The translations under genes were made by a program, and so were the position numbers. The notes under the pieces are model-generated. The model saw only the letters and a program-made list of their open reading frames with translations. It was not told the origin of the DNA and did no database searches. Shown here in pieces: positions 8,532 through 64,000 of a DNA stretch of 64,000 bases (within the stretch, counting starts at the first letter, position 1; each line of letters opens with the position of its first letter). This DNA is from Candidatus Melainabacteria bacterium (GTDB lineage Bacteria; Cyanobacteriota; Vampirovibrionia; 2-02-FULL-35-15), in the NCBI GenBank assembly GCA_016193285.1, contig JACPSL010000018.1, forward strand, positions 91,535 through 155,534, in the 5' to 3' direction.

Positions 8532-9680
8532 ATGCAATTTGAAACAAAAGCAATTCACATTGGTCAAGAACCAGATCCAACTACTGGTGCAACTATTACA
8601 CCTATTTATCAGACATCTACCTTTACACAAGATGCTCTAGGAAAACACAAAGGCTATGAATATTCAAGAACTGGAAACCCTACACGAGCAGCACTTGAAA
8701 CTGTTTTAGCTTCACTTGAAAATGGAAAATATGGGCTTTGTTTTGCTTCTGGATTAGCAGCTACAGTAAATGTTTTATGCTTGTTACAAGCTGGTGATGA
8801 GATTTTAGCTTGTGATGATCTTTATGGCGGTACAATTAGACTCTTTAACAGAGTATTTCCTAACTTCAATATTAAAACTACTTATGTAGATGGTACAAAT
8901 CAAAAAAACTTTGAAGATGGAATTACATCAAAAACTAAATTAATCTGGATTGAAACACCAACTAACCCTATGCTAAGACTTTGTGATATAAGTGCTATTA
9001 GTAAAGTCGCAAGACAAAGGGCGGATGGCCATCTGCCCCTACTGGCTGTTGATAATACATTTGCAAGCCCATTTTTTCAAAAGCCTCTTGATCTTGGTGC
9101 AGACATTGTAATCCATAGCACAACTAAATACTTAGGTGGGCACAGTGATGTAGTTGGTGGCACAGTAATTGTAAGTGATAAAAATATTTATGAAAAAATA
9201 AAGTTTTATCAAAATGCTCTTGGTGCAACACCAGGACCACTTGATTCATGGCTCATACTAAGAGGGGTTAAAACCTTGGCACTTAGAATGAAAAAACATG
9301 AAGAAAATGCAATCAAGGTAGCAGAGTTTCTAGAAAAACATCCAATAGTAAAAAAAGTAAATTACCCAGGCTTAAAATCTCACCCTCAGTATGAACTTGC
9401 AAAAAAACAAATGACTGGGTTTGGTGGAATGATATCTTTTGAAGTAAAAGGTGGAAGAGACATTGTTAAAAAAATAGTTGAATCAACTAAGCTCTTTGCA
9501 CTTGCTGAAAGTCTTGGGGGAGTTGAATCGCTGATTAATTTCCCGTTTACAATGACTCATGCAGGAGTTCCTGATAATCATAAAGCAAGGCTTGGTATTA
9601 CAGAAAGTTTAATTAGACTTTCAGTAGGAATTGAAAATACAAATGATTTAATAGATGATTTAAGACAAGCACTAAGTTGA
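8532..9680 (+). CDS. Cystathionine gamma-lyase / gamma-synthase family PLP enzyme (MetB/MetC/MccB type).
   Basis: 382 aa. It has the Cys/Met-metabolism PLP-enzyme blocks YSRTGNPT and TKYLGGHSDVVGG, where the lysine binds PLP. Confidence 0.8.
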   Translation: MQFETKAIHIGQEPDPTTGATITPIYQTSTFTQDALGKHKGYEYSRTGNPTRAALETVLASLENGKYGLCFASGLAATVNVLCLLQAGDEILACDDLYGGTIRLFNRVFPNFNIKTTYVDGTNQKNFEDGITSKTKLIWIETPTNPMLRLCDISAISKVARQRADGHLPLLAVDNTFASPFFQKPLDLGADIVIHSTTKYLGGHSDVVGGTVIVSDKNIYEKIKFYQNALGATPGPLDSWLILRGVKTLALRMKKHEENAIKVAEFLEKHPIVKKVNYPGLKSHPQYELAKKQMTGFGGMISFEVKGGRDIVKKIVESTKLFALAESLGGVESLINFPFTMTHAGVPDNHKARLGITESLIRLSVGIENTNDLIDDLRQALS

Positions 9681-30381: not shown

Positions 30382-30415
30382 TTAGTTAGACTGAAGTAGT
30401 AAAAAATATTAAAAA

Positions 30416-30448
30416 AAGAGGCTTACAAATAAGTCTCTTTTTTTTTCA
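30416..30448 (+). terminator. Rho-independent terminator.
   Basis: 10-bp stem AAGAGGCTTA/TAAGTCTCTT (one G-U pair), CAAA loop, then T9. Confidence 0.6.
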
Positions 30449-30572: not shown

Positions 30573-31166
30573 ATGTTTAAGCATTTAACAAGTTTAATTT
30601 TAGCCTTGATTTTTAGTATACAGTTTATTTGTACAAAGACATTTGCAGAAGTTATAGTTCCTTTAAATGTTACTGTTAATGGATCGTTTGTTATAACTGA
30701 TGCTGCAAATGACAGTATGTCAGGTACAAATCCAACTATAAATGTAAACCTAAATGTTACACCAGATATTGGTGCAGGTACAGTTAATGGTCAAGCTAAT
30801 TTTAGAATAAGAACAAATCGAACTACATGGAGATTAACTACACAAAAAACAGCTACAAATACAGGAGGTACAGGACTTGCAGATACTGATGTTTCTCTTA
30901 TAGTTTCAAAGTCAGCTGGATCTACTGGAAATGCAAATGCTGGTAATCTTGTTGCACCATTTAATGCTCCAACTACAATAGCTTCAATACCAACTGCTAC
31001 AGCTATAGATGTAATTAGTGGTACAGCAAAAACATCAGGTGCAAAAGATGGTACAAATACAAATAACTATTTTCAGGTAAACACAACTTATGGTGTGCAG
31101 CCGGATTTCTTTTATTCACCCGGGACATTTAGTACAACAATTACATACAATTTAGTAAGTCCATAA
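30573..31166 (+). CDS. Fimbrial subunit-like secreted protein, family member 1 (SCPU/Csu-pilin-like). It is the probable major subunit.
   Basis: Signal peptide, then an alternating-hydrophobic strand VPLNVTVNGSFVITDA. NFRIRTNRTTWRLT motif. C-terminal DFFYSPGTFSTTITYNLVSP. GAGG RBS before the ATG at 30573; the ORF track used a TTG at 30555. Confidence 0.5.
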   Translation: MFKHLTSLILALIFSIQFICTKTFAEVIVPLNVTVNGSFVITDAANDSMSGTNPTINVNLNVTPDIGAGTVNGQANFRIRTNRTTWRLTTQKTATNTGGTGLADTDVSLIVSKSAGSTGNANAGNLVAPFNAPTTIASIPTATAIDVISGTAKTSGAKDGTNTNNYFQVNTTYGVQPDFFYSPGTFSTTITYNLVSP

Positions 31167-31175
31167 CGTTTTTAT

Positions 31176-31250
31176 AGAAACAAGGTCACCTTGTCTCTTT
31201 AGTACAAATATCCTTTTATTTAAGTAGAGGCAAGGTAACCTCGTCTCTAC
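31176..31250 (+). promoter_or_regulatory. Two tandem related hairpins between the major subunit gene and the usher-like gene. This is a likely attenuator, and the hairpins are degenerate copies of the GTAGAGACG palindrome family.
   Basis: agaaacaagg-tcac-cttgtctct at 31176-31199 and gtagaggcaagg-taa-cctcgtctctac at 31224-31250. Confidence 0.5.
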
Positions 31251-31280
31251 TTTGAACATTTGTGGAATGAACATCTGTAG

Positions 31281-33947
31281 ATGAGATATTTATTAAAAAA
31301 AATATTCTTGTTAATATTGCTTTTACTTGTGTGTAATATTTGTTTTACTTTTAAGCCTTTATGTGCTCAGTTAATGACACCAGCTAATCAGTTAGAACCA
31401 CCAGAAGTAATATTAAACAACCAAAAAATAATTTTTACCAGGAAACCTATTCTTGACAATGAAGGCTGGCTTTTTCCACTGGAAGAAGTAGCAGTAAAAC
31501 TTCAAGACAAAGTTAGTGTAGATATTGTAGGTGGCACAATTACAATTCAAAGATATAGAGATAAATCAATTGTTGAGCTAAACGTAAGAAATGGAACTGT
31601 AACGGTAAACAACAGCCCGTTTAAAACTCTTTTTGGCTATAACAGAATTATTTTAGGACAAGATGTACAAATGGTTCCTACAAGTGCATTAGTAATTTTA
31701 CTTGGATTAGCTGTTAAAGATAATGATGAAGGAAAGTTAATTTTAAATAATACAATTGGAACAGATTCTACTTATCTTGGAACTATACAGCCACTCTCTC
31801 GAAAAGGCGTTAAAGATCTTTTAGTAGATTACTTAACAGTAACTAATTCATTTAACTGGTTAAAAACTCAGGAGCAATACCAAAGAAGAACAGAGATAAA
31901 CAGTGGGTTTCATAATGATGACTATACTCTTACATCTGATTTTTTAGTAAAAGCAGGTACAGATGCACCACTTGTAAATTTTGATACTGCTAATGTTTCA
32001 CTTTATAAAAATGCATCGCCATTTCAGTTTCACCTTGGTGATAGGCCTCTTAGCTTAGTTAAATCTCCTTTGCTTGGTGGCATTACACTCCGTGGTATAC
32101 AAATTCAAACAGATGGGAAACTAAAAGATAGTAAGTTTGTTTTTGGTGCAGGTGTTTTACCAAGTGATGGTAAAGTATTAGGCAAAGGACTTTCTTTTGT
32201 AAGGTATGGAAGAATTGCTGAGATAGCTGAATGGTCTACCTCTCCAAATAAAGACTGGCAGTTTTCTATAGGTGAAGCTACATACAATGACTTAATACCA
32301 AATCAGTTAATAATGTCAAGGCAAACAGGAGCACTTCTTGCAGCAAGTATTACAAAAACAGGAAAATATATTGAAGGAGATTCTAATTTTGCATTTGGAA
32401 CTTCAAGTGACATTCTAACTAAAGAAAATTTCTCAGGACCTGGTACTGATTTATTAATAAGGCTTAAGCCAAAAAAATATTTTAGTTTGTTTACTAAAGG
32501 AGCATATTATTCTCCTGGATTTTATCCACTTTCAGGTAACCCTTACTTTCATGACAGGAATGAAGCTACTGTTGGTTTTAATTTAACTCCATCAAGATCA
32601 AATATAGGATTTAGTCACTCTGTAGGAAAATACAATTTTAATGCTAATAGACCAAATACCTATAGTGTTAGCAATCTTTTTGCTTCTACAACGCCTTTTA
32701 AAAAAGGACCAACACTCCTTGCAAGTTATTCCCAAAACAAGTCACAAATTAGCTCAACAAGAGCAGTTGATAATCTTTTGTTTCCAATAAATAAAACAAA
32801 TATTTCATCTATTGATCTTGATACCTTAATAGAACGTAGAACTAATTCTTTTTTTAGAGCAAGTTTACTTAAGAGCTGGGCAACAGCAAATGTAAGTTCA
32901 AGTATTAATTATTTTACATTTGCAAATAACAATCCTTTAAAAGCTTCAATCTTACAGAATCAACCTCTGACAAAACTTGTAACTTATGATTTTAATTTCA
33001 ATAAGTATTTAAATAAAGTTTTTGGGTTACAGACTTATTTTCAAGGTAGTGAATTATATAAGCAAATTAAATTAGGTTTTAATTTAGGTCCAGTATTTAA
33101 CAATAAACTAAATCTCCAGTTTTTAACTGGTGCATTAATGCAAACAAAAAAAGAACTAAGCCCAATCTATACAGTTCGTTTAAATTATCAAGTAAACAGT
33201 ATGAATCAGTATAATTTAGACCTTGATAAAACTCCTTATTTTACACAAGTATCTGCTCTTTGGCAGTATAATTTACGCCCTAAAAGAGCAGGAACATTAC
33301 CACAAGTTGGTGAGGCTCAATCGGTTGGAAGAATAAAAGGCAGGGTTATTGTACTTGAAGAATCAAATAAAGAGCAAGCTATTAGTAATAGAATTGTTTT
33401 ACCTTCTACACATGAGAGAGGATTAGCTAATGTAAGGATTCACTTGGGAAATTACACTATTATGACTGATGAAAAAGGTTATTTTGAATTCCCAAGTCTT
33501 ACAAATGGTATACATACTGTCCGAGTTGAATATTCTGATCTCCCATCATATTTAACTTCTATTACTCCTGAAAAAGTTGATATTAAAGTAGAATCTGGAA
33601 AAGAAACAAACTTTAATTTTGTTCTAGCTTATTTTGGTGAAGTAAAAGGAAAAATTAAATTAGCAAATGAACCACTAGTGAAACCTGAAGAAGAGCCAGA
33701 GTTACAAGACATTAGGGTTTATCTTGAAGGTACTGATGTTGAGACACTTACTAATATAGATGGTTCATTTGTATTAGGAGATGTTAAACCAGGAAAATAT
33801 AAATTAAAAGTTGATCCAGATTTTCTTCCAGATATATTAGAAGCTTCTCAAGAATTAGAATTAGAAGTTCATGGAAAACAAAAAATTGAAAATATTCAGT
33901 TGCCTATTAGATTTAAATCAAAACAAACTGAAATAAAAGAATTTTAG
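31281..33947 (+). CDS. Large outer-membrane usher-like protein (888 aa) with two C-terminal carboxypeptidase-regulatory/transthyretin-like beta-sandwich domains.
   Basis: Signal peptide, a long beta-rich middle with many aromatic-X-aromatic stretches, and a terminal F. Two GxVxxxxxxxPLxxVRIxLxGTDxxTxTxxDGSF-type domains at the C-terminus fit usher CTD1/CTD2. Confidence 0.4.
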   Translation: MRYLLKKIFLLILLLLVCNICFTFKPLCAQLMTPANQLEPPEVILNNQKIIFTRKPILDNEGWLFPLEEVAVKLQDKVSVDIVGGTITIQRYRDKSIVELNVRNGTVTVNNSPFKTLFGYNRIILGQDVQMVPTSALVILLGLAVKDNDEGKLILNNTIGTDSTYLGTIQPLSRKGVKDLLVDYLTVTNSFNWLKTQEQYQRRTEINSGFHNDDYTLTSDFLVKAGTDAPLVNFDTANVSLYKNASPFQFHLGDRPLSLVKSPLLGGITLRGIQIQTDGKLKDSKFVFGAGVLPSDGKVLGKGLSFVRYGRIAEIAEWSTSPNKDWQFSIGEATYNDLIPNQLIMSRQTGALLAASITKTGKYIEGDSNFAFGTSSDILTKENFSGPGTDLLIRLKPKKYFSLFTKGAYYSPGFYPLSGNPYFHDRNEATVGFNLTPSRSNIGFSHSVGKYNFNANRPNTYSVSNLFASTTPFKKGPTLLASYSQNKSQISSTRAVDNLLFPINKTNISSIDLDTLIERRTNSFFRASLLKSWATANVSSSINYFTFANNNPLKASILQNQPLTKLVTYDFNFNKYLNKVFGLQTYFQGSELYKQIKLGFNLGPVFNNKLNLQFLTGALMQTKKELSPIYTVRLNYQVNSMNQYNLDLDKTPYFTQVSALWQYNLRPKRAGTLPQVGEAQSVGRIKGRVIVLEESNKEQAISNRIVLPSTHERGLANVRIHLGNYTIMTDEKGYFEFPSLTNGIHTVRVEYSDLPSYLTSITPEKVDIKVESGKETNFNFVLAYFGEVKGKIKLANEPLVKPEEEPELQDIRVYLEGTDVETLTNIDGSFVLGDVKPGKYKLKVDPDFLPDILEASQELELEVHGKQKIENIQLPIRFKSKQTEIKEF

Positions 33948-34139
33948 GTTTTTATTTCTAGAGTAATAGTATAAAGAGCCCTAACTTTTAAATATTAGTA
34001 ACTTCGTACCGATAACAAACTCGGGAGAGAAATAATTACGAGAAAGACTTGGACTTAAGTCTAAAACAGATTGTTTTTCTTATGGCTGGGAAAAATTTTC
34101 TTTTGTAATTTTAAATCTGCTTCCAGAAAGGAGCAAACT

Positions 34140-34742
34140 ATGTTTAAAGAAATCATGAGACTATTAGCAGTAATAGCTATTCTCTGTTCTGCAAACATTG
34201 TTTGTGTAGATAGTGCATTTGCAGCAGGTACTGTACCATTATCAATTACTGTTAATGGTTCACTTGTAATCTCAGATGCTGATAATGACACTATGGCAGG
34301 AAAAGATCCTACAAAGAATGTTAGTTTAACAATTACACCTGATCTTGGCCACACTTTACAAAGTGGTAGTGCTAATTTTAGGCTAAGAACTAACCGTTCA
34401 ACGTGGAGGTTAACTGCTCAGCGTACAGCAACAAATGCTGGTGGTACTGCAATTGCAGATAGTGATGTCAAGGTTGACATTAGTAAATCTGCAGGTTCAA
34501 CAGCAAGTGCTGCCGCAGGTTCTTTAGTTGCTCCGTTTACTGCACAAACTGACCTGACTTCTATTACTACAGCTAGTCCAGTTGATGTTATTAGTGGAAC
34601 AGCTAAAACATCTACAGCGCTAGATGCAAGTAATACAAACAACTGGTTTCAAGTTAATACTACGTATAGCTTGCAACCAGACTTTTTCTACGCACCAGGT
34701 ACGTTTAGTACAACCATAACGTACAATTTTGTGTCACCGTAG
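34140..34742 (+). CDS. Fimbrial subunit-like protein, family member 2.
   Basis: RBS AGGAG then ATG at 34140. TVPLSITVNGSLVISDA...NFRLRTNRSTWRLTAQRTATN...DFFYAPGTFSTTITYNFVSP. About 60% identical to member 1. Confidence 0.55.
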   Translation: MFKEIMRLLAVIAILCSANIVCVDSAFAAGTVPLSITVNGSLVISDADNDTMAGKDPTKNVSLTITPDLGHTLQSGSANFRLRTNRSTWRLTAQRTATNAGGTAIADSDVKVDISKSAGSTASAAAGSLVAPFTAQTDLTSITTASPVDVISGTAKTSTALDASNTNNWFQVNTTYSLQPDFFYAPGTFSTTITYNFVSP

Positions 34743-34749
34743 GAGAAAT

Positions 34750-34821
34750 AGCAATCAGCAGTCAGCAGTCAGCAATCAGCAAAATAAAAGAGCTGATAGC
34801 TGAATGCTGATAGCTGATAGC
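34750..34821. repeat. Long imperfect hairpin built from heptamer repeats, (AGCARTC)n facing (GCTGAWW)n. STRR-like; probably a terminator.
   Basis: agcaatcagcagtcagcagtcagcaatcagc aaaataaaagag gctgatagctgaatgctgatagctgatagct. Confidence 0.6.
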
Positions 34822-34936
34822 TTGTTAATCCTAGACTTATCAAATGATTTTTATTTTTTCAGTACTAAATTACTAAGACTTTTTAATTTGATAAAAATAA
34901 TTTTGGGCATGTTATTCTTGCAACAAAAAAACACAT

Positions 34937-35542
34937 ATGAAATTCAATTTTCAGATCATTTATTTGTTCCTAGTGGTATTAATAGTTTTATCATTGATAC
35001 CAATAAAATCTTTTTCTCAATCTGCAACAGTACCAGTCAATATAACTGTAAACGGGACTTTTACAATTTCAGATGCTGCAAATGATTCAAACTCTGGAAA
35101 AAATCCCACCATAAATGTAAATTTATCTGTCACTCCTGATCTTGGAGCTGCACCTGCAACTGGAGATGCTAATTTTAGAATTCGTACAAATAGATCTACA
35201 TGGAGACTTACTGCACAAAGAACATTAGAGATTGATATAGGACCTACAAATATTACTTCAAAAGATATTGGACTACTTGTTACTACTCAAGCAGGAATTA
35301 ATGCAAATGCTGCAGCAGGAACATTAGTACCACCATTTAACAGTCAAACAAATTTAAATGCAATATTAACTTCTTCCCCAGTAGATGTCATAAGTGGCAC
35401 AGCAAAAACATCTACTGCCAGAGATACTACAAATACCAATAACTATTTTCAGGTTAATACTCGCTATAGTATTCTTCCTGACTTTTTTTACCAACCTGGT
35501 ATTTGGAGAACAACCATTACTTATAATCTTGTAAGCCCGTAA
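34937..35542 (+). CDS. Fimbrial subunit-like protein, family member 3.
   Basis: TVPVNITVNGTFTISDAANDS...NFRIRTNRSTWRLTAQRT...DFFYQPGIWRTTITYNLVSP. Confidence 0.55.
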   Translation: MKFNFQIIYLFLVVLIVLSLIPIKSFSQSATVPVNITVNGTFTISDAANDSNSGKNPTINVNLSVTPDLGAAPATGDANFRIRTNRSTWRLTAQRTLEIDIGPTNITSKDIGLLVTTQAGINANAAAGTLVPPFNSQTNLNAILTSSPVDVISGTAKTSTARDTTNTNNYFQVNTRYSILPDFFYQPGIWRTTITYNLVSP

Positions 35543-35676
35543 GCCTCTTTAATAGTAATAACCCTAAGTACTATCGCTTTTTATTTAGGTTCTTTTAACA
35601 TATTTATCCGATAGTATTTGTATACTAGAACCAAAGGACTAAATTCTAGTTCCAGCCATAAGAAAAACAATCGCTC

Positions 35677-36288
35677 ATGACCTTGAAAAATTACATAGCA
35701 AGGATATTAATTCTTTTTACTGCTAGCGCATGCATTTTTATTTCTTCAAGTAATTTAAATGTGAAGTCAAGCCAAGCAACAATACCTTTAAATATTGTTG
35801 TCCTTGGAAAGCTGGTTATAACTGATGCAATTAATGACAATAGTCTTAGTAAAGACCCTACTATAAATGTCTTGCTGAGGCTGACACCCGATTTAAGTAA
35901 CTCAGTAGTTTCAGGAAGTGCTGCAATAAGAATAAGAACAAATTTAAACAAGTGGAAACTTACTGCTCAAAGAACAAATATTACTAATTCTCTTCAAATA
36001 GATCCAAGTGATATATCAATAACTTATACAACTCAAACAGGCTCAAAAGGAAACCCAAATGCTGCTAGTTTGAATCCTCCTTTTGATATGGCAACAAACT
36101 TAAGTCAGATTTTAACTAGCTTTCCTACTGAAGTCTTAATTGGTAACAGTAAAACATCACTTGATAAGGAGCCTGATAATAAAAACAACTGGTTTCAATT
36201 AACTTCAAATTATAGTATCCTGCCTGACTTTTTCTATGACATAGGGGAATTAAATACTACGATTAGTTATAGTTTAGTAAGTCCATAA
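35677..36288 (+). CDS. Fimbrial subunit-like protein, family member 4 (more divergent).
   Basis: TIPLNIVVLGKLVITDAINDN...IRIRTNLNKWKLTAQRT...DFFYDIGELNTTISYSLVSP. Confidence 0.5.
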   Translation: MTLKNYIARILILFTASACIFISSSNLNVKSSQATIPLNIVVLGKLVITDAINDNSLSKDPTINVLLRLTPDLSNSVVSGSAAIRIRTNLNKWKLTAQRTNITNSLQIDPSDISITYTTQTGSKGNPNAASLNPPFDMATNLSQILTSFPTEVLIGNSKTSLDKEPDNKNNWFQLTSNYSILPDFFYDIGELNTTISYSLVSP

Positions 36289-36317
36289 ATAAGAACATAT
36301 AATAATATTGATTGTAG

Positions 36318-36869
36318 ATGCCCAAAGCTTTTTATATATTTTTCTTTGCTTTAATATTTTTCATTGCCTTTTCAGGTTGTGCTTTAGCCTGTCTGTCATT
36401 TACTGATGACTATAATTTTCCAAATCCTGTATTAAATGCAAACTTTAATATTTTGCCAGATGTTAGTCCTTTTACTGAATGTTGGACTGGTGTTTTTAGA
36501 ATAAGAAGTAAACAAAATGGCTGGCGTCTAATTGCAAGTAGAGAAGGTCCAATGCCATTACAAGCTAGTGGTGCTCCAGCTGATAATGTTAAAGCTAGTG
36601 ATGTAACGCTTGATTTTTCAATAAAAAGCTTTGGGCAAGCTCCACCGAACGGTGCTGTTTTAGTTTCTCCATTTTCTTCAATAACAAATCTGTCTTCAAT
36701 TCAGTCAGGGACTTTTATTGTTTCAGGTATAGCAAAATCCAGTAATAGTTGTTCATCTAACAATCCAAGTTTTTATAGACTTACAAAAAACCTTTGTTTG
36801 TTTCATGATTTTGTATTTAATCCAGGGGAATATAATGGACAAGTGTCATATATTTTAGTGGCACCGTAG
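36318..36869 (+). CDS. Divergent, Cys-containing member of the same family. Possibly a tip/minor subunit or adhesin.
   Basis: FRIRSKQNGWRLIASREG...YILVAP. Unlike the other members it has Cys residues (C21, C25, CW, CSSNN...C). Confidence 0.4.
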   Translation: MPKAFYIFFFALIFFIAFSGCALACLSFTDDYNFPNPVLNANFNILPDVSPFTECWTGVFRIRSKQNGWRLIASREGPMPLQASGAPADNVKASDVTLDFSIKSFGQAPPNGAVLVSPFSSITNLSSIQSGTFIVSGIAKSSNSCSSNNPSFYRLTKNLCLFHDFVFNPGEYNGQVSYILVAP

Positions 36870-36877
36870 GAGAAGGT

Positions 36878-37741
36878 ATGGGAGTATCGGCGCATCAACG
36901 TGTTTTAATTTTCCTGATTTTGTTAGGAGTATTATTTTCTCAAAATACAAAAGCTTTGGCCTGGACTGTTTCACCAGTTAGGTTTGAAGTTAAAGCTGAA
37001 AAAGGGAAAGAATATACATTAACCTTTTCAGTATTAAATGAAAGTCAGCTTTATCAAAAAAGATTTGAAATCCAAACAGATGATTGGGTAATAGATAAAG
37101 AAAATAATTTTCTAAGGAAAGCTTTTAATAAAAATTTAGAAATAAAATATTCAGCAACATCATGGATTAGAGTTTCACCACAACAGTTTGTGCTTCCGCC
37201 AGGACAGTCAAAAAGTGTTAGATTTACCATTGCTGTTCCAAGTAATCTTGATGGAGATGGAGAATATAAAACAGGTATTTTTGTAGGTGAAAAAAATATT
37301 GAAAAGCCTCCAAAAGGAGAAAAAATTGTTCATATAAAACAAGATACTTATATTGGTGTAATTGTTTATGTAAAAATTGGAGAAGAAAAACCAGAAATTA
37401 TTTTAAAAGATTTTAAAGTAAGTACAAAACCACAAGAAAAAAACTTACATAAGGTAACAATTTATCCTGTTTATGAAAGCCATGGGAATGTTCATTCAAG
37501 AGGACAAATCTCAGTAAAGATGGAACCACTCTCAGCTATTGGCCCTAACCTCCCAGCTCCTGATGCTTTTAATGCTGGCGAGTTAGTTGTTTTAAGAGGA
37601 ACAGAAGTTGCATATCCAATTGATATTCCTGTTTTACTTCCAGCAAATAGTGAATGGAAGTTTGTTGTAACTAGTGATTTCGGTAATAAGACACCTAATC
37701 TTGTTGGGACTAAGAAATATAAGATACCTTTACACCCATAA
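36878..37741 (+). CDS. PapD-like periplasmic pilus chaperone candidate.
   Basis: Signal peptide. N-domain AWTVSPVRFEVKAEKGKEYTLTFSVLNES...WIRVSPQQFVLPPGQSKSVRFTIAVP resembles the chaperone N-domain pattern. RBS AGGAGAAGG. 287 aa. Confidence 0.45.
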   Translation: MGVSAHQRVLIFLILLGVLFSQNTKALAWTVSPVRFEVKAEKGKEYTLTFSVLNESQLYQKRFEIQTDDWVIDKENNFLRKAFNKNLEIKYSATSWIRVSPQQFVLPPGQSKSVRFTIAVPSNLDGDGEYKTGIFVGEKNIEKPPKGEKIVHIKQDTYIGVIVYVKIGEEKPEIILKDFKVSTKPQEKNLHKVTIYPVYESHGNVHSRGQISVKMEPLSAIGPNLPAPDAFNAGELVVLRGTEVAYPIDIPVLLPANSEWKFVVTSDFGNKTPNLVGTKKYKIPLHP

Positions 37742-43231: not shown

Positions 43232-43296
43232 AGACCATAGACCATAGACTAGAGACTATAGACCTTTTTGTGGTCTACGGTCTATGGTCTATAGTC
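43232..43296. repeat. Hairpin composed of heptamer repeats (AGACCAT/AGACTAG/AGACTAT units and their complements). It starts 7 bp upstream of the ilvD start codon.
   Basis: agaccatagaccatagactagagactatagacc tttttgt ggtctacggtctatggtctatagtct. Confidence 0.7.
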
Positions 43297-43402
43297 TTTT
43301 GTCCCAACGTGGTTTTTGATTTCATCTAAGCTATAATCTAACATATAAATTTGAAGAATAACAGTATAAGCATATTTATTTAAATAAAGAAAAAAATATA
43401 AG

Positions 43403-49100: not shown

Positions 49101-49877
49101 ATGTTACATGAATTTGAAAAAGAATTAGTTTATGGCAGAAAGCCTGTTCTAGAAATGCTCCAGCAAAGCGCCTCTACACAAATAAATAAAATTTGGCTAA
49201 GCAATGGTTTTCAGGATAAAAAATTTAAACAATTAATTATTTCTTTTGCAAAAGATAAAAAAATTCCTATTAATTTTGTTCCAGAATCTAGATTAAACAA
49301 TTTAACAATTAACCAAAATCATCAAGGGATTGTTCTAAGCATTTCTCCAATTAATTATTTGTCTGTAGAGACGCTCCACCGGAGCGTCTCTACACCAAAA
49401 ATAATTTTAATTGCTCATGAAATTGAAGATCCTCATAATTTAGGTGCAATGATTAGAACTTTTGTAGCTGGTGGTGGGAAAGGAATAATACTTACAGGCA
49501 GAAAAAGTGTTGGTATAAGTTCGACAGTTATTAAGACAAGTGCAGGTGTTTTGTTTCAAGCAAATTTTGCAAGGGCTACAAATTGTATAAATGTTATTAA
49601 AGAGCTAAAAGAAAAAGGATTTTGGATAGTAGGAACAGATGTTACAAAAAATGCTGAATCAATTTATAAAGTAGACCTGCCAGATCAAATCGCCATCTTA
49701 GTTGGCAATGAGCATGAAGGCTTAAGTAATTTAATAAAAAAGAACTGTGATTTTCTTATAAGAGTCCCTACAAGTAATAAAGTTGATTCATTAAATGTGT
49801 CTGTAGCTTTTGGAATATTACTTTTTGAGTTTCTAAGGCAGAAAAACCTTTTAACAGTAATCAATCCTATATCCTAG
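49101..49877 (+). CDS. SpoU/TrmH-family RNA 2'-O-methyltransferase (RlmB-like).
   Basis: N-terminal substrate-binding domain plus SPOUT motifs LVGNEHEGLS and SLNVSVA. Confidence 0.7.
   Translation: MLHEFEKELVYGRKPVLEMLQQSASTQINKIWLSNGFQDKKFKQLIISFAKDKKIPINFVPESRLNNLTINQNHQGIVLSISPINYLSVETLHRSVSTPKIILIAHEIEDPHNLGAMIRTFVAGGGKGIILTGRKSVGISSTVIKTSAGVLFQANFARATNCINVIKELKEKGFWIVGTDVTKNAESIYKVDLPDQIAILVGNEHEGLSNLIKKNCDFLIRVPTSNKVDSLNVSVAFGILLFEFLRQKNLLTVINPIS
49365..49393. repeat. Perfect 13-bp-arm palindrome GTAGAGACGCTCC-ACC-GGAGCGTCTCTAC inserted in frame in the methyltransferase (encodes VETLHRSVST).
   Basis: Direct reading. The offset from the CDS start is 264, which is divisible by 3. Confidence 0.85.
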
Positions 49878-54750: not shown

Positions 54751-55404
54751 ATGGATATCCTTGATTACAAAGAATGTGTAACGAAAATATACTTTGTTCG
54801 TCATGGGGAGACAAAAGCAAATAAACTTAGATTATTGTTTGGCCAGTTAGACTTGGATTTAAACAAGCAAGGTTTAAAAGATGCAAGAAGAGTTGCAAGC
54901 AAGTTATTAAAAATTGCAAAGAAAGAAAAAATAAGTTTTATTATTTCAAGCCCTTTAAAGAGAGCAAAACATACAGCAAATATAATCTCACAAGAGCTTG
55001 TAAGGGCAGGCCTTGCGCCTGCCTCTAGAATCATCATAGATAAAAACTTAATGGAAAAATCAGAAGGCACGTGGGATGGGAAAAGTTTTTGGGATGTTAG
55101 ACAAAAAGACCCTAAAAATTATTATTCTTGGGTAAAAGATCCTTTTAAGAACAGGACTCCAAAAGGTGAATCAGTACTTGATTTAAATAAAAGAGTAAAA
55201 AAATTTTATAAGACTGTATTAAAAAAGTATTTAGGTAAAAATATTATTGTAACGACTCACTCAGGACCAATTAGACTTTTTGTCTTAAATTTATTAGGCA
55301 CAAAAATAAATAAGTTTTGGTACTTAAAAACTGAATGTGGCTCTATTACAGAAGTTCATATAAGCAAAAAACATGCAATGATATGGAGTTTAAATGTTAA
55401 TTAA
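54751..55404 (+). CDS. Histidine phosphatase superfamily (phosphoglycerate-mutase-like) protein.
   Basis: IYFVRHGETKAN catalytic RHG motif. Confidence 0.65.
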   Translation: MDILDYKECVTKIYFVRHGETKANKLRLLFGQLDLDLNKQGLKDARRVASKLLKIAKKEKISFIISSPLKRAKHTANIISQELVRAGLAPASRIIIDKNLMEKSEGTWDGKSFWDVRQKDPKNYYSWVKDPFKNRTPKGESVLDLNKRVKKFYKTVLKKYLGKNIIVTTHSGPIRLFVLNLLGTKINKFWYLKTECGSITEVHISKKHAMIWSLNVN

Positions 55405-61050: not shown

Positions 61051-62013
61051 GTGACTGTAAAATCAAAATTAATAATTGGTACCCGCTCTAGCAAGCTTGC
61101 TTGTTGGCAAGCAAATTATGTAAAAGACAAGCTATTAAGATTTTATCCAGAGCTTGAAATTAATTTAAAAGAAATAAAAACAAAAGGTGATCATATTACT
61201 GATGTTGCTCTTTCAAAAGTTGGTGGGAAAGGATTTTTTACAAAAGAAATTGAAGATGCACTTCTTAAAAAAGAAATTGATTTAGCAGTGCATAGCTTAA
61301 AAGATCTGCCAACAAAATTACCAAGCGGACTAAAAATAGGAGCCGTATTAAAAAGAGAGAGTCCACATGATGTATTGATTACAAGGGGTCTGACCCCATT
61401 AAGGGGTCTGCCCCCTTGGGCAAAAATAGGTACTTCAAGCCTTCGTAGAATTGCTCAACTAAAGGCGTTGCGACCTGATTTGGAGTACATTGACCTTCGT
61501 GGAAATCTCGATACAAGGATTAGAAAGCTTGAAGAAGGAAAACATGATGGAATAGTCCTAGCTTACAGCGGGGTAAAACGATTAGGTTTTGAAAACAAGA
61601 TTACTGAACATTTTAACCCAAAAGAAATTTTGCCTGCTATTGGACAAGGAGCACTAGCAATTGAAATCAGAGAAGAAAGAGTAGTAGAAGAACTAATTTC
61701 TAAACTCAATGATCAAGAAACATATTTAAGTTCAATTGTAGAGCGAGCATTTTTAGAAACCTTGCAAGGTGGTTGTCAAGTACCGATTGGCGCTTATTCA
61801 GAAATTGCAAATAATAAAATTACTTTATATGGAATGATTGCAAGTCTGGATGGAAAAAAAATAGTCAAAGACCATAGACTAGAGACCATAGACTATAGAC
61901 TAGAACTAAGAGAACAAAATATAGAGGGTTGTTATAGACTTGGGAAAGAATTAGCAGAAAGGTTACTGCAATTAGGTGGAAAAGAAATTCTTCAAGAGAT
62001 TGTAAGGGTGTGA
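61051..62013 (+). CDS. hemC: Porphobilinogen deaminase (hydroxymethylbilane synthase).
   Basis: IGTRSSKLACWQA, GGKGFFTKEIE, and the cofactor-binding Cys region GGCQVPIG. Confidence 0.85.
   Translation: MTVKSKLIIGTRSSKLACWQANYVKDKLLRFYPELEINLKEIKTKGDHITDVALSKVGGKGFFTKEIEDALLKKEIDLAVHSLKDLPTKLPSGLKIGAVLKRESPHDVLITRGLTPLRGLPPWAKIGTSSLRRIAQLKALRPDLEYIDLRGNLDTRIRKLEEGKHDGIVLAYSGVKRLGFENKITEHFNPKEILPAIGQGALAIEIREERVVEELISKLNDQETYLSSIVERAFLETLQGGCQVPIGAYSEIANNKITLYGMIASLDGKKIVKDHRLETIDYRLELREQNIEGCYRLGKELAERLLQLGGKEILQEIVRV
61869..61910. repeat. Six tandem heptamers (AGACCAT AGACTAG AGACCAT AGACTAT AGACTAG AACTAAG) inserted in frame in hemC (encodes approximately [14 protein letters not shown]).
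   Basis: Direct reading. The units are the same as in the hairpin at 43232-43296. 42 bp equals 14 codons. Confidence 0.85.
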
Positions 62014-62025
62014 TATTGTAGTTAT

Positions 62026-63588
62026 ATGGAACATGGAAAACAAAACAATTCTATTGTATACATTACAGGTGCAGGTCCCGGGGATCCTGGCTTACTAACA
62101 TTAAAGGCTAAAGAAATTATTGAAAGAGCAGATGTTATTGCTTATGATAACTTAGTTTCAAAAGAAATCTTAGAACTTGCCTTGTTTTTAAATAAGGGTG
62201 TAAAAATTGTTTACGTAGGCAAGGTTGGTTATAAGCAAGAAGAGTCAGTTAATCAAGAAAAAATAAATAATCTTTTACTTGAGCTATCTAAGGATTACAA
62301 AATTATTTGCCGTTTAAAAGGTGGCGATCCAAACGTTTTTGGTCGTGGTGGCGAAGAAGCATTGTTCTTAAAGAAAAACAATATAAATTTTGAATTTATT
62401 CCAGGAGTGTCTAGTATTTCTGCTGTTCCTGCTTATAGTGGAATACCTTTAACTCATAGGGATTGTAGTAGCTCTTTTACTGTCATATCTGCTCATGAAG
62501 ATCCATTTGATTTAAATAATTCAATTAACTGGAAAGACTTTGAAGTTGTTAACAATACTCTTGTACTTTTAATGGGGGTTAAGAATCTGCCTAAGATAGC
62601 TGAAAAACTAGTTTCTTTAGGACGTTCTAAAGATACTCCTGTTGCAATAATTTATTGGGGTACGACAAATAAGCAAAAATCAGTTCTTACTACTTTGCAA
62701 GATGTTTCTTATAACATAAAAAGGTATGAGGTTAAAGCCCCTTCAGTGATTATAATTGGTAAGGTAGTTAATTATAAAAGTATATTAGACTGGTTTGAGA
62801 CAAAAACATTGTTTGGGAAAAAGATTTTAATTACAAGATCAAAAGAGCAATCTTTTTCTTTTGTTTCCAAACTACTTGATATGGGCACAAAGCCAATTAA
62901 TTGTCCTATTGTTAGTTATGAAATTGTTGAGAAAGAAATTTACAACAAAAATATTATAAATAATTTGTCAAAGTTTAATTGGATATTTTTTACAAGTCAA
63001 AATGCAGTAAGGTATTTTTTTGAAATTTTAAATAAGAATTATTTTGATTCTAGAGTTCTTGCAAATAATGAAATAGCTGCTGTTGGTTATAAAACAAAAT
63101 TAGAATTAGAGAAACATAATATTAAGCCAGACTTTGTACCAAAGAGGTTTTCATTTGATGATTTAATTAATGAATTATCAGAAAGAATAAATTTAAAAGA
63201 TAAAAAGATTTTACATCCAACGCAGGTAGAGACGTTGCGTGCAACGTCTCTACAGATAACCCATTGGCCAATTTACGAGGCAAATTTTGTAAATGAGTTA
63301 GACCAAGAAATAATAAATCAAATTAAAGAAGGGATAGACGTTATTACTTTTTTTAGTTCAAGTACAGCAAGACATTTTGCAAAATTAATTGAAAAATATG
63401 ATGTAGAGATACGATTAATCGCGTCTCTAACAGCAACAATTGGGGATAAAACCTCAGATACAGTCAAACAATTATTTGGTAAAGTTGATATTATTGCAGA
63501 TCCTTTTACAGAAGATGGTTTAATTAATTCAATGGAAAAATATTATGCAAGATCAAATTCTAAAATCAAGACCAAGACGACTGCGTAA
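62026..63588 (+). CDS. Bifunctional uroporphyrinogen-III C-methyltransferase / uroporphyrinogen-III synthase (CobA-HemD fusion).
   Basis: N-terminal half has IVYITGAGPGDPGLLTLKA (SUMT motif). C-terminal half has the HemD-like fold. 520 aa. Confidence 0.8.
   Translation: MEHGKQNNSIVYITGAGPGDPGLLTLKAKEIIERADVIAYDNLVSKEILELALFLNKGVKIVYVGKVGYKQEESVNQEKINNLLLELSKDYKIICRLKGGDPNVFGRGGEEALFLKKNNINFEFIPGVSSISAVPAYSGIPLTHRDCSSSFTVISAHEDPFDLNNSINWKDFEVVNNTLVLLMGVKNLPKIAEKLVSLGRSKDTPVAIIYWGTTNKQKSVLTTLQDVSYNIKRYEVKAPSVIIIGKVVNYKSILDWFETKTLFGKKILITRSKEQSFSFVSKLLDMGTKPINCPIVSYEIVEKEIYNKNIINNLSKFNWIFFTSQNAVRYFFEILNKNYFDSRVLANNEIAAVGYKTKLELEKHNIKPDFVPKRFSFDDLINELSERINLKDKKILHPTQVETLRATSLQITHWPIYEANFVNELDQEIINQIKEGIDVITFFSSSTARHFAKLIEKYDVEIRLIASLTATIGDKTSDTVKQLFGKVDIIADPFTEDGLINSMEKYYARSNSKIKTKTTA
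63226..63253. repeat. Palindrome GTAGAGACGTTGC-GT-GCAACGTCTCTAC in frame in cobA/hemD (encodes VETLRATSLQ).
   Basis: Direct reading. The offset is 1200 from the CDS start. Confidence 0.85.
63403..63431. repeat. Degenerate copy GTAGAGATACG-ATTAAT-CGCGTCTCTAAC of the same palindrome family, in frame in cobA/hemD (encodes VEIRLIASLT).
   Basis: Direct reading. The offset is 1377 from the CDS start. Confidence 0.7.
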
Positions 63589-64000
63589 AAGTGAGGTAAT
63601 TAGAAACCTTGTTCAGGAGACAATTTTATCTCCAGTACAATTCATAGCCCCAGTCTTTATTCATGAAGGCAATGAGCCTGAAATTAAAATAAATTCTATG
63701 CCGGGGATTTATCAATTTTCTGTAGACAGAACCTTGAAATATGTAGAAGAACTTTTAGAAAATAAAATTAAATCAATAATTATTTTTGGCATACCAAGAA
63801 ATAAAGATAACCAAGCTTCATCTGCTTGGAATGAAAATGGAGTAGTCCAAAAGGCAAATAAAAAAATTAAAGAACACTTTCCAGAAATCTTACTTGTAAA
63901 TGATACTTGTCTTTGTGAATATATGGAGCATGGACATTGTGGAGTTGTAGAGACGCGGTTAACCACGTCTCTACAGAATATAACAATTTCAAATGATCTT
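63545..64000 (+). CDS. hemB: Porphobilinogen synthase (delta-aminolevulinate dehydratase), N-terminal part. The gene continues past the window end.
   Basis: Manual translation MQDQILKSRPRRLRKSEVIRNLVQETILSPVQFIAPVFIHEG...NDTCLCEYMEHGHCG with the Zn-binding CxCx7C region. It overlaps the cobA/hemD 3' end. It is not in the ORF track because there is no stop in the window. Confidence 0.8.
   Translation, partial: MQDQILKSRPRRLRKSEVIRNLVQETILSPVQFIAPVFIHEGNEPEIKINSMPGIYQFSVDRTLKYVEELLENKIKSIIIFGIPRNKDNQASSAWNENGVVQKANKKIKEHFPEILLVNDTCLCEYMEHGHCGVVETRLTTSLQNITISNDL
63947..63974. repeat. Palindrome GTAGAGACGCGG-TTAA-CCACGTCTCTAC in frame in hemB, immediately after the HGHCG active-site motif (encodes VETRLTTSLQ).
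   Basis: Direct reading. The offset is 402 from the hemB ATG. Confidence 0.85.

Follow-up and report, generated by a model that had tools for sequence, protein, structure and literature searches.

We analysed a 64,000-nt stretch of a Candidatus Melainabacteria genome (the window) and, within it, the gap between two co-directional genes, the first of which (gene 1) is predicted to encode a secreted pilin-like subunit and the second (gene 2) an usher-like outer-membrane protein. The stop codon of gene 1 (TAA, 31164-31166) and the start codon of gene 2 (ATG, 31281) are separated by 114 nt that hold two stem-loops, here called hairpin 1 and hairpin 2 (for coordinates and sequences of all features see Table 1). 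The original prediction had described two related stem-loops in this gap, and its coordinates and sequences proved to be exact. The hairpins are direct repeats of 24 nt, identical at 83% of positions, spaced by 50 nt and provided with the same inner stem (AAGG/CCTT). The pattern common to both occurs nowhere else in the window and in none of 100 shuffles. A simple segmental duplication of 50 nt was rejected as the origin of the pair, because the similarity ends at the borders of the 24-nt palindromes.

The two hairpins differ markedly in stability. The stem of hairpin 1 consists of 10 pairs, one of them an A·C mismatch, and its RNA folds at -7.8 kcal/mol (z -2.6), a value equalled by 5 of 200 shuffles. 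The stem of hairpin 2 consists of 12 pairs, among them one G·U and one A·C, and folds at -15.9 kcal/mol (z -4.7), which none of 200 shuffles equalled. When every 35-nt window of the 64 kb is ranked by stability, hairpin 2 falls in the top 0.08% and hairpin 1 in the top 2.7%. The folding-energy calculation proposed with the original prediction came out in favour of hairpin 2, which is stable, and not of hairpin 1, which is weak. Both hairpin 2 and the relatedness of the pair exceed chance, while hairpin 1 by itself is unremarkable. When the 82-nt unit with both hairpins is folded as a whole, the minimum-energy structure (-26.7 kcal/mol, z -5.3) joins the two hairpins, the 3' arm of the first pairing with the 5' arm of the second. 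With the four arms numbered in order, this 2:3 fold and the 1:2 + 3:4 fold (-23.7 kcal/mol summed) are mutually exclusive; such an alternative pairing is possible as an automatic consequence of both hairpins being copies of one palindrome.

That palindrome recurs in the window. At one mismatch or fewer, GTAGAGACG has 13 matches, as compared to 2.9 ± 1.9 expected, and the good copies are palindromes of 28-30 nt with the form (T)GTAGAGACG-N10/11-CGTCTCTAC(A), in which a variable stem of 4 bp closes a loop of 2-3 nt. Besides the two hairpins, at least four further and better copies were found, all of them in frame inside housekeeping genes (rlmB, cobA-hemD twice, and hemB). We searched the window with a covariance model built from 49 foreign copies, which had been chosen for perfect arms, so that the model under-scores decayed copies and its E-values are rough; it returned three good copies at 36-45 bits, then the locus 63401-63433 at 13.5 bits (E 0.03) and, as the fifth-best locus, hairpin 2 at a borderline 12.3 bits (E 0.08), with noise starting from about 10 bits. 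The 3' arm of hairpin 2, CGTCTCTAC, is perfect and its 5' arm carries two substitutions; its architecture is 9+3+3+3+9 nt against 9+4+2/3+4+9 in the family. GTAG (31224-31227) is present in hairpin 2 and pairs with CTAC, whereas hairpin 1 has ATAG, lacks CTAC, and differs from the family at 6 of 18 arm positions.

The same palindrome was sought by an exact-pattern scan of one genome per species (596 Gb), which gave at least 120 loci. By our own estimate about 110 matches are expected by chance in 596 Gb, thus the hit count is no evidence for a family, and for this reason the evidence has to come from the length distribution, the complementarity of the inner stem, the multi-copy loci and the linkage to a transposase gene. 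Four features make the matches listed clearly non-random: of 130 copies, 123 measure 28 or 29 nt; of 125, 96 have an inner 4-bp stem with full complementarity, in 33 different sequences; several loci hold 2-4 copies; and long ORFs are avoided, as the counts below show. These matches come from Cyanobacteria, Bacteroidota, Chloroflexota, Geobacter, Rhodothermales, Omnitrophota and others, with a G+C content of 31-74% and identical 9-bp arms. Long open reading frames (ORFs) contain 19 of the 130 copies and 346 of 595 random positions, so that 85% of the copies lie outside long ORFs as compared to 42% of random positions. A literature search for the palindrome sequence itself yielded cloning primers with BsmBI sites only.

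We also clustered the ORFs of the at least 120 loci to seek a protein family that travels with the palindrome. One such family overlaps or abuts it in 7 of the 120 loci listed (L024, L026, L058, L086, L109, L117 and, as a fragment, L005); in L026 the palindrome stands on both sides of the gene, and in three loci inside it. In NCBIfam, the sole real match of this protein is NF047646, 'REP-associated tyrosine transposase' (RAYT; E ~1e-15, 57-58 bits, which is below the 80-bit equivalog cut-off). The Pfam Y1_Tnp match is marginal, and the protein also matches E. coli TnpArep (PDB 4er8, E 6e-6). Because these 7 of 120 listed loci carry a RAYT gene on or beside the palindrome, we assign the family to the GTAG-type repetitive extragenic palindromic (REP) elements.

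Eleven orthologous loci (L127 and L129-L138), whose gene 2 proteins are 61-70% identical to that of the window, were compared; eight have gene 1, and L127, L134 and L138 are without it. The conserved gene order is ispH (opposite strand), a 132-aa gene, the optional gene 1, a ~900-aa gene, three ~200-aa genes, a 184-aa gene, a ~330-aa gene and NUDIX. Neither hairpin was found at the orthologous gap in any of the 11 loci. Four contigs that carry exactly gene 1 (L001-L004) are 100% identical over the gap and show no population variation. In the relatives the gap is longer (137-491 nt). Seven of the eight relatives with gene 1, as well as L127 and L138, hold in it a conserved element of ~110 nt that is absent from the gene 1-gene 2 gap of the window, and four of the eight (L130, L131, L133, L135) have a canonical intrinsic terminator there. 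Hairpin 1 occupies the position where the relatives carry this element and, in four, the terminator, that is, immediately upstream of a block conserved ahead of gene 2.

This block reads ..TAGGAT.A.TGTAC.TTTTATTT, ~23 AT-rich nt, TTTGTGGAATG, 10-41 nt and ATG. It is kept in L127, L134 and L138, three loci without gene 1 in which a strong terminator closes the gene upstream. Since it persists in relatives lacking gene 1, a promoter or leader of gene 2's own is probable, and the conserved block is most likely this promoter or leader, with TTTGTGGAATG probably as one of its elements. Gene 2 would then probably be transcribed from a promoter located downstream of or around hairpin 2. A sigma-70 promoter was sought in the block and nothing convincing was found. 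Hairpin 2 lies inside the AT-rich spacer of the block, which is 37 nt long here, a net gain of 14 nt in comparison to all eight aligned relatives. A different hairpin, of the CGGG-TTAG-CCCG type, stands between TTTGTGGAATG and the ATG in seven of the nine relatives read there; it is diverged in L129 and L130, and lacking in the window and in L135.

An intrinsic terminator combines a G+C-rich stem-loop with at least 4-5 consecutive U directly behind it, and neither hairpin shows this combination. The tails 3' of the hairpins are UUUAGUAC and UUUGAACA, a U-tract is absent after either, and genuine terminators of this genome have 7-9 U. A lax terminator scan flagged hairpin 1 alone of the pair, with a tail of merely CTCTTTAG; over 11 kb the scan gave 7 sites against 4.9 expected, which is no excess. 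A sensing element that could serve an attenuator (a leader ORF, sought by reading the 114-nt gap, a ligand pocket or a protein site) was not found, and an Rfam search returned tRNAs only, in the window and in five relatives.

We therefore favour, with moderate confidence, the reading that the hairpins are a lineage-specific, decaying tandem pair of GTAG-type REP-like palindromes, which, if they share a transcript with gene 1, would by default terminate transcription leakily and hinder exonucleases. The analysis shows the identity, relatedness and stability of the hairpins, the family membership of hairpin 2, the lineage specificity and the context; the function we infer. A head-to-tail pair of decayed copies would have arisen in this lineage only, inside a regulatory gap, from a repeat that appears to be scattered through this genome and through many phyla and that elsewhere seems to travel with a RAYT. 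If transcribed together with gene 1, the hairpins would form a leaky, possibly Rho-assisted terminator, as E. coli REPs do, and would also present a barrier to 3'-to-5' exonucleases, leaving more gene 1 transcript than gene 2 transcript. Such damping of read-through would follow from physical properties, and a selected, tuned attenuator would not be required. In our view the hairpins are better labelled REP-like repeats than a dedicated attenuator, and the value of this reading is mostly one of annotation.

Several points weigh against it. The 64-kb window contains no RAYT gene, and of its six copies, hairpins 1 and 2 included, four are intragenic, which is atypical for REPs. Published GTAG REPs have the GTAG as an unpaired tail, while here it pairs with CTAC. 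The composition of the covariance model makes the score of hairpin 2 a rough one, and hairpin 1 has no match to the model at E<=10. The two hairpins had been described originally as degenerate members of the palindrome family; this holds for hairpin 2, with its 12.3 bits and perfect 3' arm, and hairpin 1 would belong there solely through its 83% identity to hairpin 2. That the pair may dampen read-through is pure analogy with other REPs. Finally, the gap contains no terminator-like structure besides the hairpins, and this leaves room for a real functional recruitment.

Such a recruitment is possible, although we consider it rather unlikely: REP-derived hairpins would have replaced an ancestral terminator and been kept since they set a high subunit:usher transcript ratio, either by partial termination or by protection of the 3' end of the gene 1 transcript, and the 2:3 pairing may act as a switch. 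The four canonical terminators in the gap of relatives, the hairpin that follows gene 3 in every genome and the want of any other terminator in the window's gap speak for this idea, as do the pilin-like and usher-like folds of the flanking products and the closeness in energy of the two conformations (-23.7 and -26.7 kcal/mol). In L133, moreover, the place of the terminator after gene 3 is taken by a perfect family member with tcTTTTTgg behind it, and REP325 has exactly such a role in the E. coli yjdMN operon. However, there is no U-tract, hairpin 1 reaches only -7.8 kcal/mol, the hairpins are conserved in 0 of 11 relatives, and no sensing element was found. Hairpin 2, in addition, sits within the upstream block of gene 2, which is also present without gene 1 (L127, L134, L138). 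The classic attenuator position named in the original prediction is thus supported by what relatives carry in the same gap, but the attenuator itself is not, and the placement after gene 1 has to be qualified, as hairpin 2 interrupts the block of gene 2. Co-option of the repeat as regulatory hairpins, also proposed there, did not gain support either: both copies carry mismatches, whereas intragenic copies are perfect, and we saw no sign of selection on the structures, so that it stands as the doubtful possibility given above.

The same placement could mean that hairpin 2 belongs to gene 2, either as a stem-loop in the 5' untranslated region that stabilises or occludes the usher-like mRNA or as a palindromic operator for a dimeric regulator, in which case hairpin 1 alone would end the gene 1 transcript. 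Its location between two conserved sub-blocks, the persistence of the block where gene 1 is absent and the frequency of leader hairpins at gene 2 (the CGGG-TTAG-CCCG type in 7 of 9 relatives) agree with this. Nevertheless, we regard it as very unlikely, given that no sigma-70-like promoter stands out and that hairpin 2 copies a dispersed repeat, rather than being a locus-specific operator, and is conserved in no relative. The least credible explanation in our view is that of chance palindromes in AT-rich intergenic DNA, unrelated to the repeat family. Hairpin 1 taken alone would fit it, being ordinary in its z-score and rank, and by our own estimate a likeness to the family arms as poor as that of hairpin 1 would be met at ~30 sites per 64 kb. 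Hairpin 2, however, combines its top 0.08% rank with a perfect 9-nt family arm and the family architecture, and the 24-nt likeness of the hairpins was seen in 0 of 100 shuffles. For hairpin 2 and for the pair, chance is effectively refuted.

Table 1. Positions of the features discussed; numbering is that of the window unless a related locus is named.
Feature	Position	Strand	Remarks
Gene 1	30573-31166	+	197-aa secreted pilin-like subunit (predicted), HYY52_04250, annotated hypothetical
Hairpin 1	31176-31198	+	AGAAACAAGG-TCA-CCTTGTCTCT, 23 nt, weak stem-loop; begins 9 nt past gene 1 stop
Spacer TTAGTACAAATATCCTTTTATTT	31199-31221	+	by alignment, the opening segment of the block that all relatives conserve ahead of gene 2 (..TAG.A...TGTAC.TTTTATTT)
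Hairpin 2	31224-31250	+	GTAGAGGCAAGG-TAA-CCTCGTCTCTAC, 27 nt
15-nt tandem duplication TGAACATTTGTGGA / TGAACATCTGTAGA	31253-31281	+	second copy (31268-31281) carries the gene 2 ATG
TTTGTGGAATG	31259-31269	+	invariant in 8 of 9 relatives read at the motif (CTGTGGAATG in L129); 10-41 nt upstream of gene 2 start
Gene 2	31281-33947	+	888-aa usher-like outer-membrane protein (predicted); start codon fixed by N-terminus conserved in orthologues
Last gene of cluster	36878-37741		weak ASH, Cep192 and WxLIP_PGBD matches in 5 of 5 orthologues, none above Pfam cut-offs
Canonical intrinsic terminator of preceding 134-aa gene (comparison)	30411-30444	+	A-tract, stem, T9; -14.8 kcal/mol, z -7.1
Perfect family member TGTAGAGACGCTCC-ACC-GGAGCGTCTCTACA	49364-49394		within rlmB; -25.2 kcal/mol; 38 bits; in frame VETLHRSVST
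Family member	63225-63254		within cobA-hemD fusion gene; 45 bits; in frame VETLRATSLQ
Degenerate family member	63404-63429		within cobA-hemD; 13.5 bits, E 0.03; in frame VEIRLIASL
Family member	63946-63975		within hemB, right after HGHCG motif; 41.7 bits; in frame VETRLTTSLQ
~110-nt element copies	L129 4768-4876; L130 4738-4846; L131 4686-4796; L133 608-716; L135 4770-4872; L127 4776-4894; window 34066-34095		
Family-like palindromes in relatives	L127 4966-4989; L133 751-776, 4610-4635; L136 1595-1621		L127: gene 2 leader; L133: after gene 1 terminator and after gene 3; L136: inside aconitase-family gene
Example RAYT-linked loci	L026 1184-1965; L086 812-1600; L117 4928-5575		

The intragenic copies of the palindrome merit a separate description. 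In an alignment of cobA-hemD (alignment A2), the peptides encoded by the palindromes occupy sites where orthologues have segments of about equal length. Many of these orthologue segments seem to derive from REPs too, with different arms (VETCHGMSL, VGATGRSPL, VGAYHGMPL), and homologues outside Melainabacteria have ordinary sequence at the same sites. In cobA-hemD, to judge by the alignment, the palindromes appear to overwrite loops rather than simply insert. In RlmB, compared with E. coli RlmB, the linker carrying the palindrome is variable. ORFs of the window contain other very stable, G+C-rich palindromes as well (61383-61417, 54997-55031, 9006-9040; e.g., AAGGGGTCTGACCCCATTAAGGGGTCTGCCCCCTT, -21.8 kcal/mol), in a genome of 32% G+C; these may be other intragenic repeat families.

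In the ~110-nt element of the relatives, the hairpin ATTGTTTTTC-TATGGCTAG-GAAACAAT is enclosed by a closing helix that shows compensatory changes. The element is preceded by GGAGG and by an ATG from which a peptide of 11-17 aa (..FLWLGN..) could be encoded. Further copies occur in six of the relatives read, both ahead of gene 3 and, in minus-strand orientation, in the interval that separates genes 4 and 5; a search of Rfam gave no match to the element. A stable hairpin of some kind follows every subunit gene in every relative, and after gene 3 it stands at a distance of 17-27 nt in every genome. In L133 this post-gene-3 hairpin is the perfect family member TATAGAGACGTTGCATGCAACGTCTCTATA, then tcTTTTTgg, at the usual terminator position; the TTTTTGG also follows unrelated hairpins in L132 and L134. 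Two long intergenic inverted repeats of the window are built as heptamer arrays, one at 34752-34822 (CAGCAGT/CAATCAG facing GCTGATA) and one at 43232-43303 (AGACCAT facing its complement). They resemble cyanobacterial short tandemly repeated repetitive (STRR) sequences, and the first of them directly follows subunit gene 3, where relatives have the terminator hairpin.

The flanking genes had been named a subunit gene and an usher gene in the original prediction, and predicted folds lend this moderate support, although no sequence family detects these roles. Gene 1 has paralogues at 34140-34742, 34937-35542 and 35677-36288, and neither it nor these gave a Pfam or NCBIfam match; its 187 homologues are all from Melainabacteria or carry no taxon name. 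The AlphaFold2 model of its product (predicted local distance difference test score, pLDDT, 90) is a beta-sandwich, whose best Foldseek matches in the PDB are weak, namely the TasA fibre and the CFA/I pilin CfaB (E ~1e-3, template modelling (TM) score 0.3-0.5), followed by CS17, CooA and Fim pilins. In an usher (Pfam PF00577), periplasmic domains stand at the N- and C-terminal ends of an outer-membrane barrel of 24 strands. The gene 2 protein matches only Cu_amine_oxidN1 and CarboxypepD_reg in Pfam, and the usher family PF00577 gave no match in this search. Its AlphaFold2 model (pLDDT 68.6), however, has an N-terminal domain, ~25 long beta strands and two C-terminal beta-sandwich domains, and its 13 best Foldseek matches in the PDB are FimD/PapC ushers (E 1.7e-19 to 5e-9, TM ~0.3), with other barrels from 1e-7. 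A scan of metagenome contigs with gene 2 gave two distant domain matches only. The ASH, Cep192 and WxLIP_PGBD domains weakly matched by the last gene presumably belong to a PapD-like fold group. A Gram-positive surface cluster of the WxL/Csc type, prompted by the weak WxLIP_PGBD and EF0750 matches, was considered and dropped given the usher-like barrel model. Judged by the models, the cluster at 30573-37741, restricted to Melainabacteria and annotated as hypothetical throughout, resembles a chaperone-usher system, if a very divergent one.

If the hairpins do modulate read-through, selfish REP DNA would serve as an expression dial in a pilus operon, outside Proteobacteria. One could go further and propose that Melainabacteria repeatedly recruit the cross-phylum REP/RAYT palindrome as transcript-punctuating hairpins of an unrecognised chaperone-usher-like cluster, the pair described here being a tunable leaky terminator or stabiliser that sets the subunit:usher ratio. 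Such repeated recruitment would be exemplified by the window, with its pair after gene 1, and by L133, with one copy after gene 1 and another, followed by a T-run, after gene 3; we consider this proposal improbable. In our opinion the surroundings are more interesting than the hairpins themselves, as they include a sequence-orphan usher-like cluster, a conserved structured RNA or small-ORF element and a cross-phylum palindrome with its RAYT.

Chaperone-usher operons have a stem-loop or terminator after the major pilin gene (papA, fimA). The present pair is similar in standing between the first pilin-like gene, which it follows directly, and the usher-like gene, at a place where relatives have canonical terminators, but its hairpins are without a U-tract and not conserved, and the cluster is chaperone-usher-like by fold only. 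As in REPINs, two REP copies 50 nt apart can pair as one long hairpin (-26.7 kcal/mol). Unlike in REPINs, each unit is a complete palindrome, so that direct and inverted arrangements are indistinguishable, and no evidence of doublet mobility was found. A comparison with Rickettsia palindromic elements and intragenic REPs bears on the intragenic copies and not on the two intergenic hairpins: family members are likewise in frame within housekeeping genes (rlmB, cobA-hemD, hemB), yet at 30 nt (10 aa) a unit is far shorter here, and the cobA-hemD copies, at least, overlie equal-length orthologue segments and appear not to be simple insertions.

Closer to the pair in arrangement are the intra-operon REPs of E. 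coli, among which that between malE and malF was reportedly described by Newbury et al. in 1987. The intra-operon REP325 array in yjdMN is a partial, partly Rho-dependent terminator that also stabilises the upstream mRNA (bioRxiv 10.64898/2026.03.23.713779). According to the same study, REPs are generally without U-tracts, and E. coli REP fragments of 2-4 hairpins are insufficient for Rho dependence (10.64898/2026.03.23.713779). The present pair shares with these REPs the tandem hairpins without a U-tract between two co-directional genes, and upstream-biased expression would be expected. It differs in that only two decayed hairpins are present and in that gene 2 probably has its own promoter.

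GTAG-tagged REP elements and their RAYT transposases were reportedly described by Nunvar in 2010. The GTAG REP superfamily, including intragenic REPs, RAYTs and GTAG REPs in cyanobacteria, has been surveyed, and there the GTAG forms an unpaired tail (Di Nocera et al. 2013, PMC3733652). A transposase gene with the palindrome on its flanks is the hallmark of REP/RAYT systems as these have been described (Bertels & Rainey 2011, PMC3116915; Di Nocera et al., PMC3733652). The family described here departs from these systems in three respects: GTAG pairs with a 3' CTAC, which makes the whole unit a full palindrome; the same 9-bp arms occur in many phyla, whereas most REP families are species-specific; and most copies of the window are intragenic, with no RAYT there. 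Otherwise the likeness is considerable. In both cases we find an imperfect palindrome of 20-40 nt that starts with GTAG, is dispersed in many copies and has a variable stem tip with complementarity kept. Taken across phyla, the copies are mostly extragenic and downstream of ORFs; they stand alone, in dimers or in clusters, some of them in frame within genes, and in other genomes the RAYT is flanked by the repeat or contains it.

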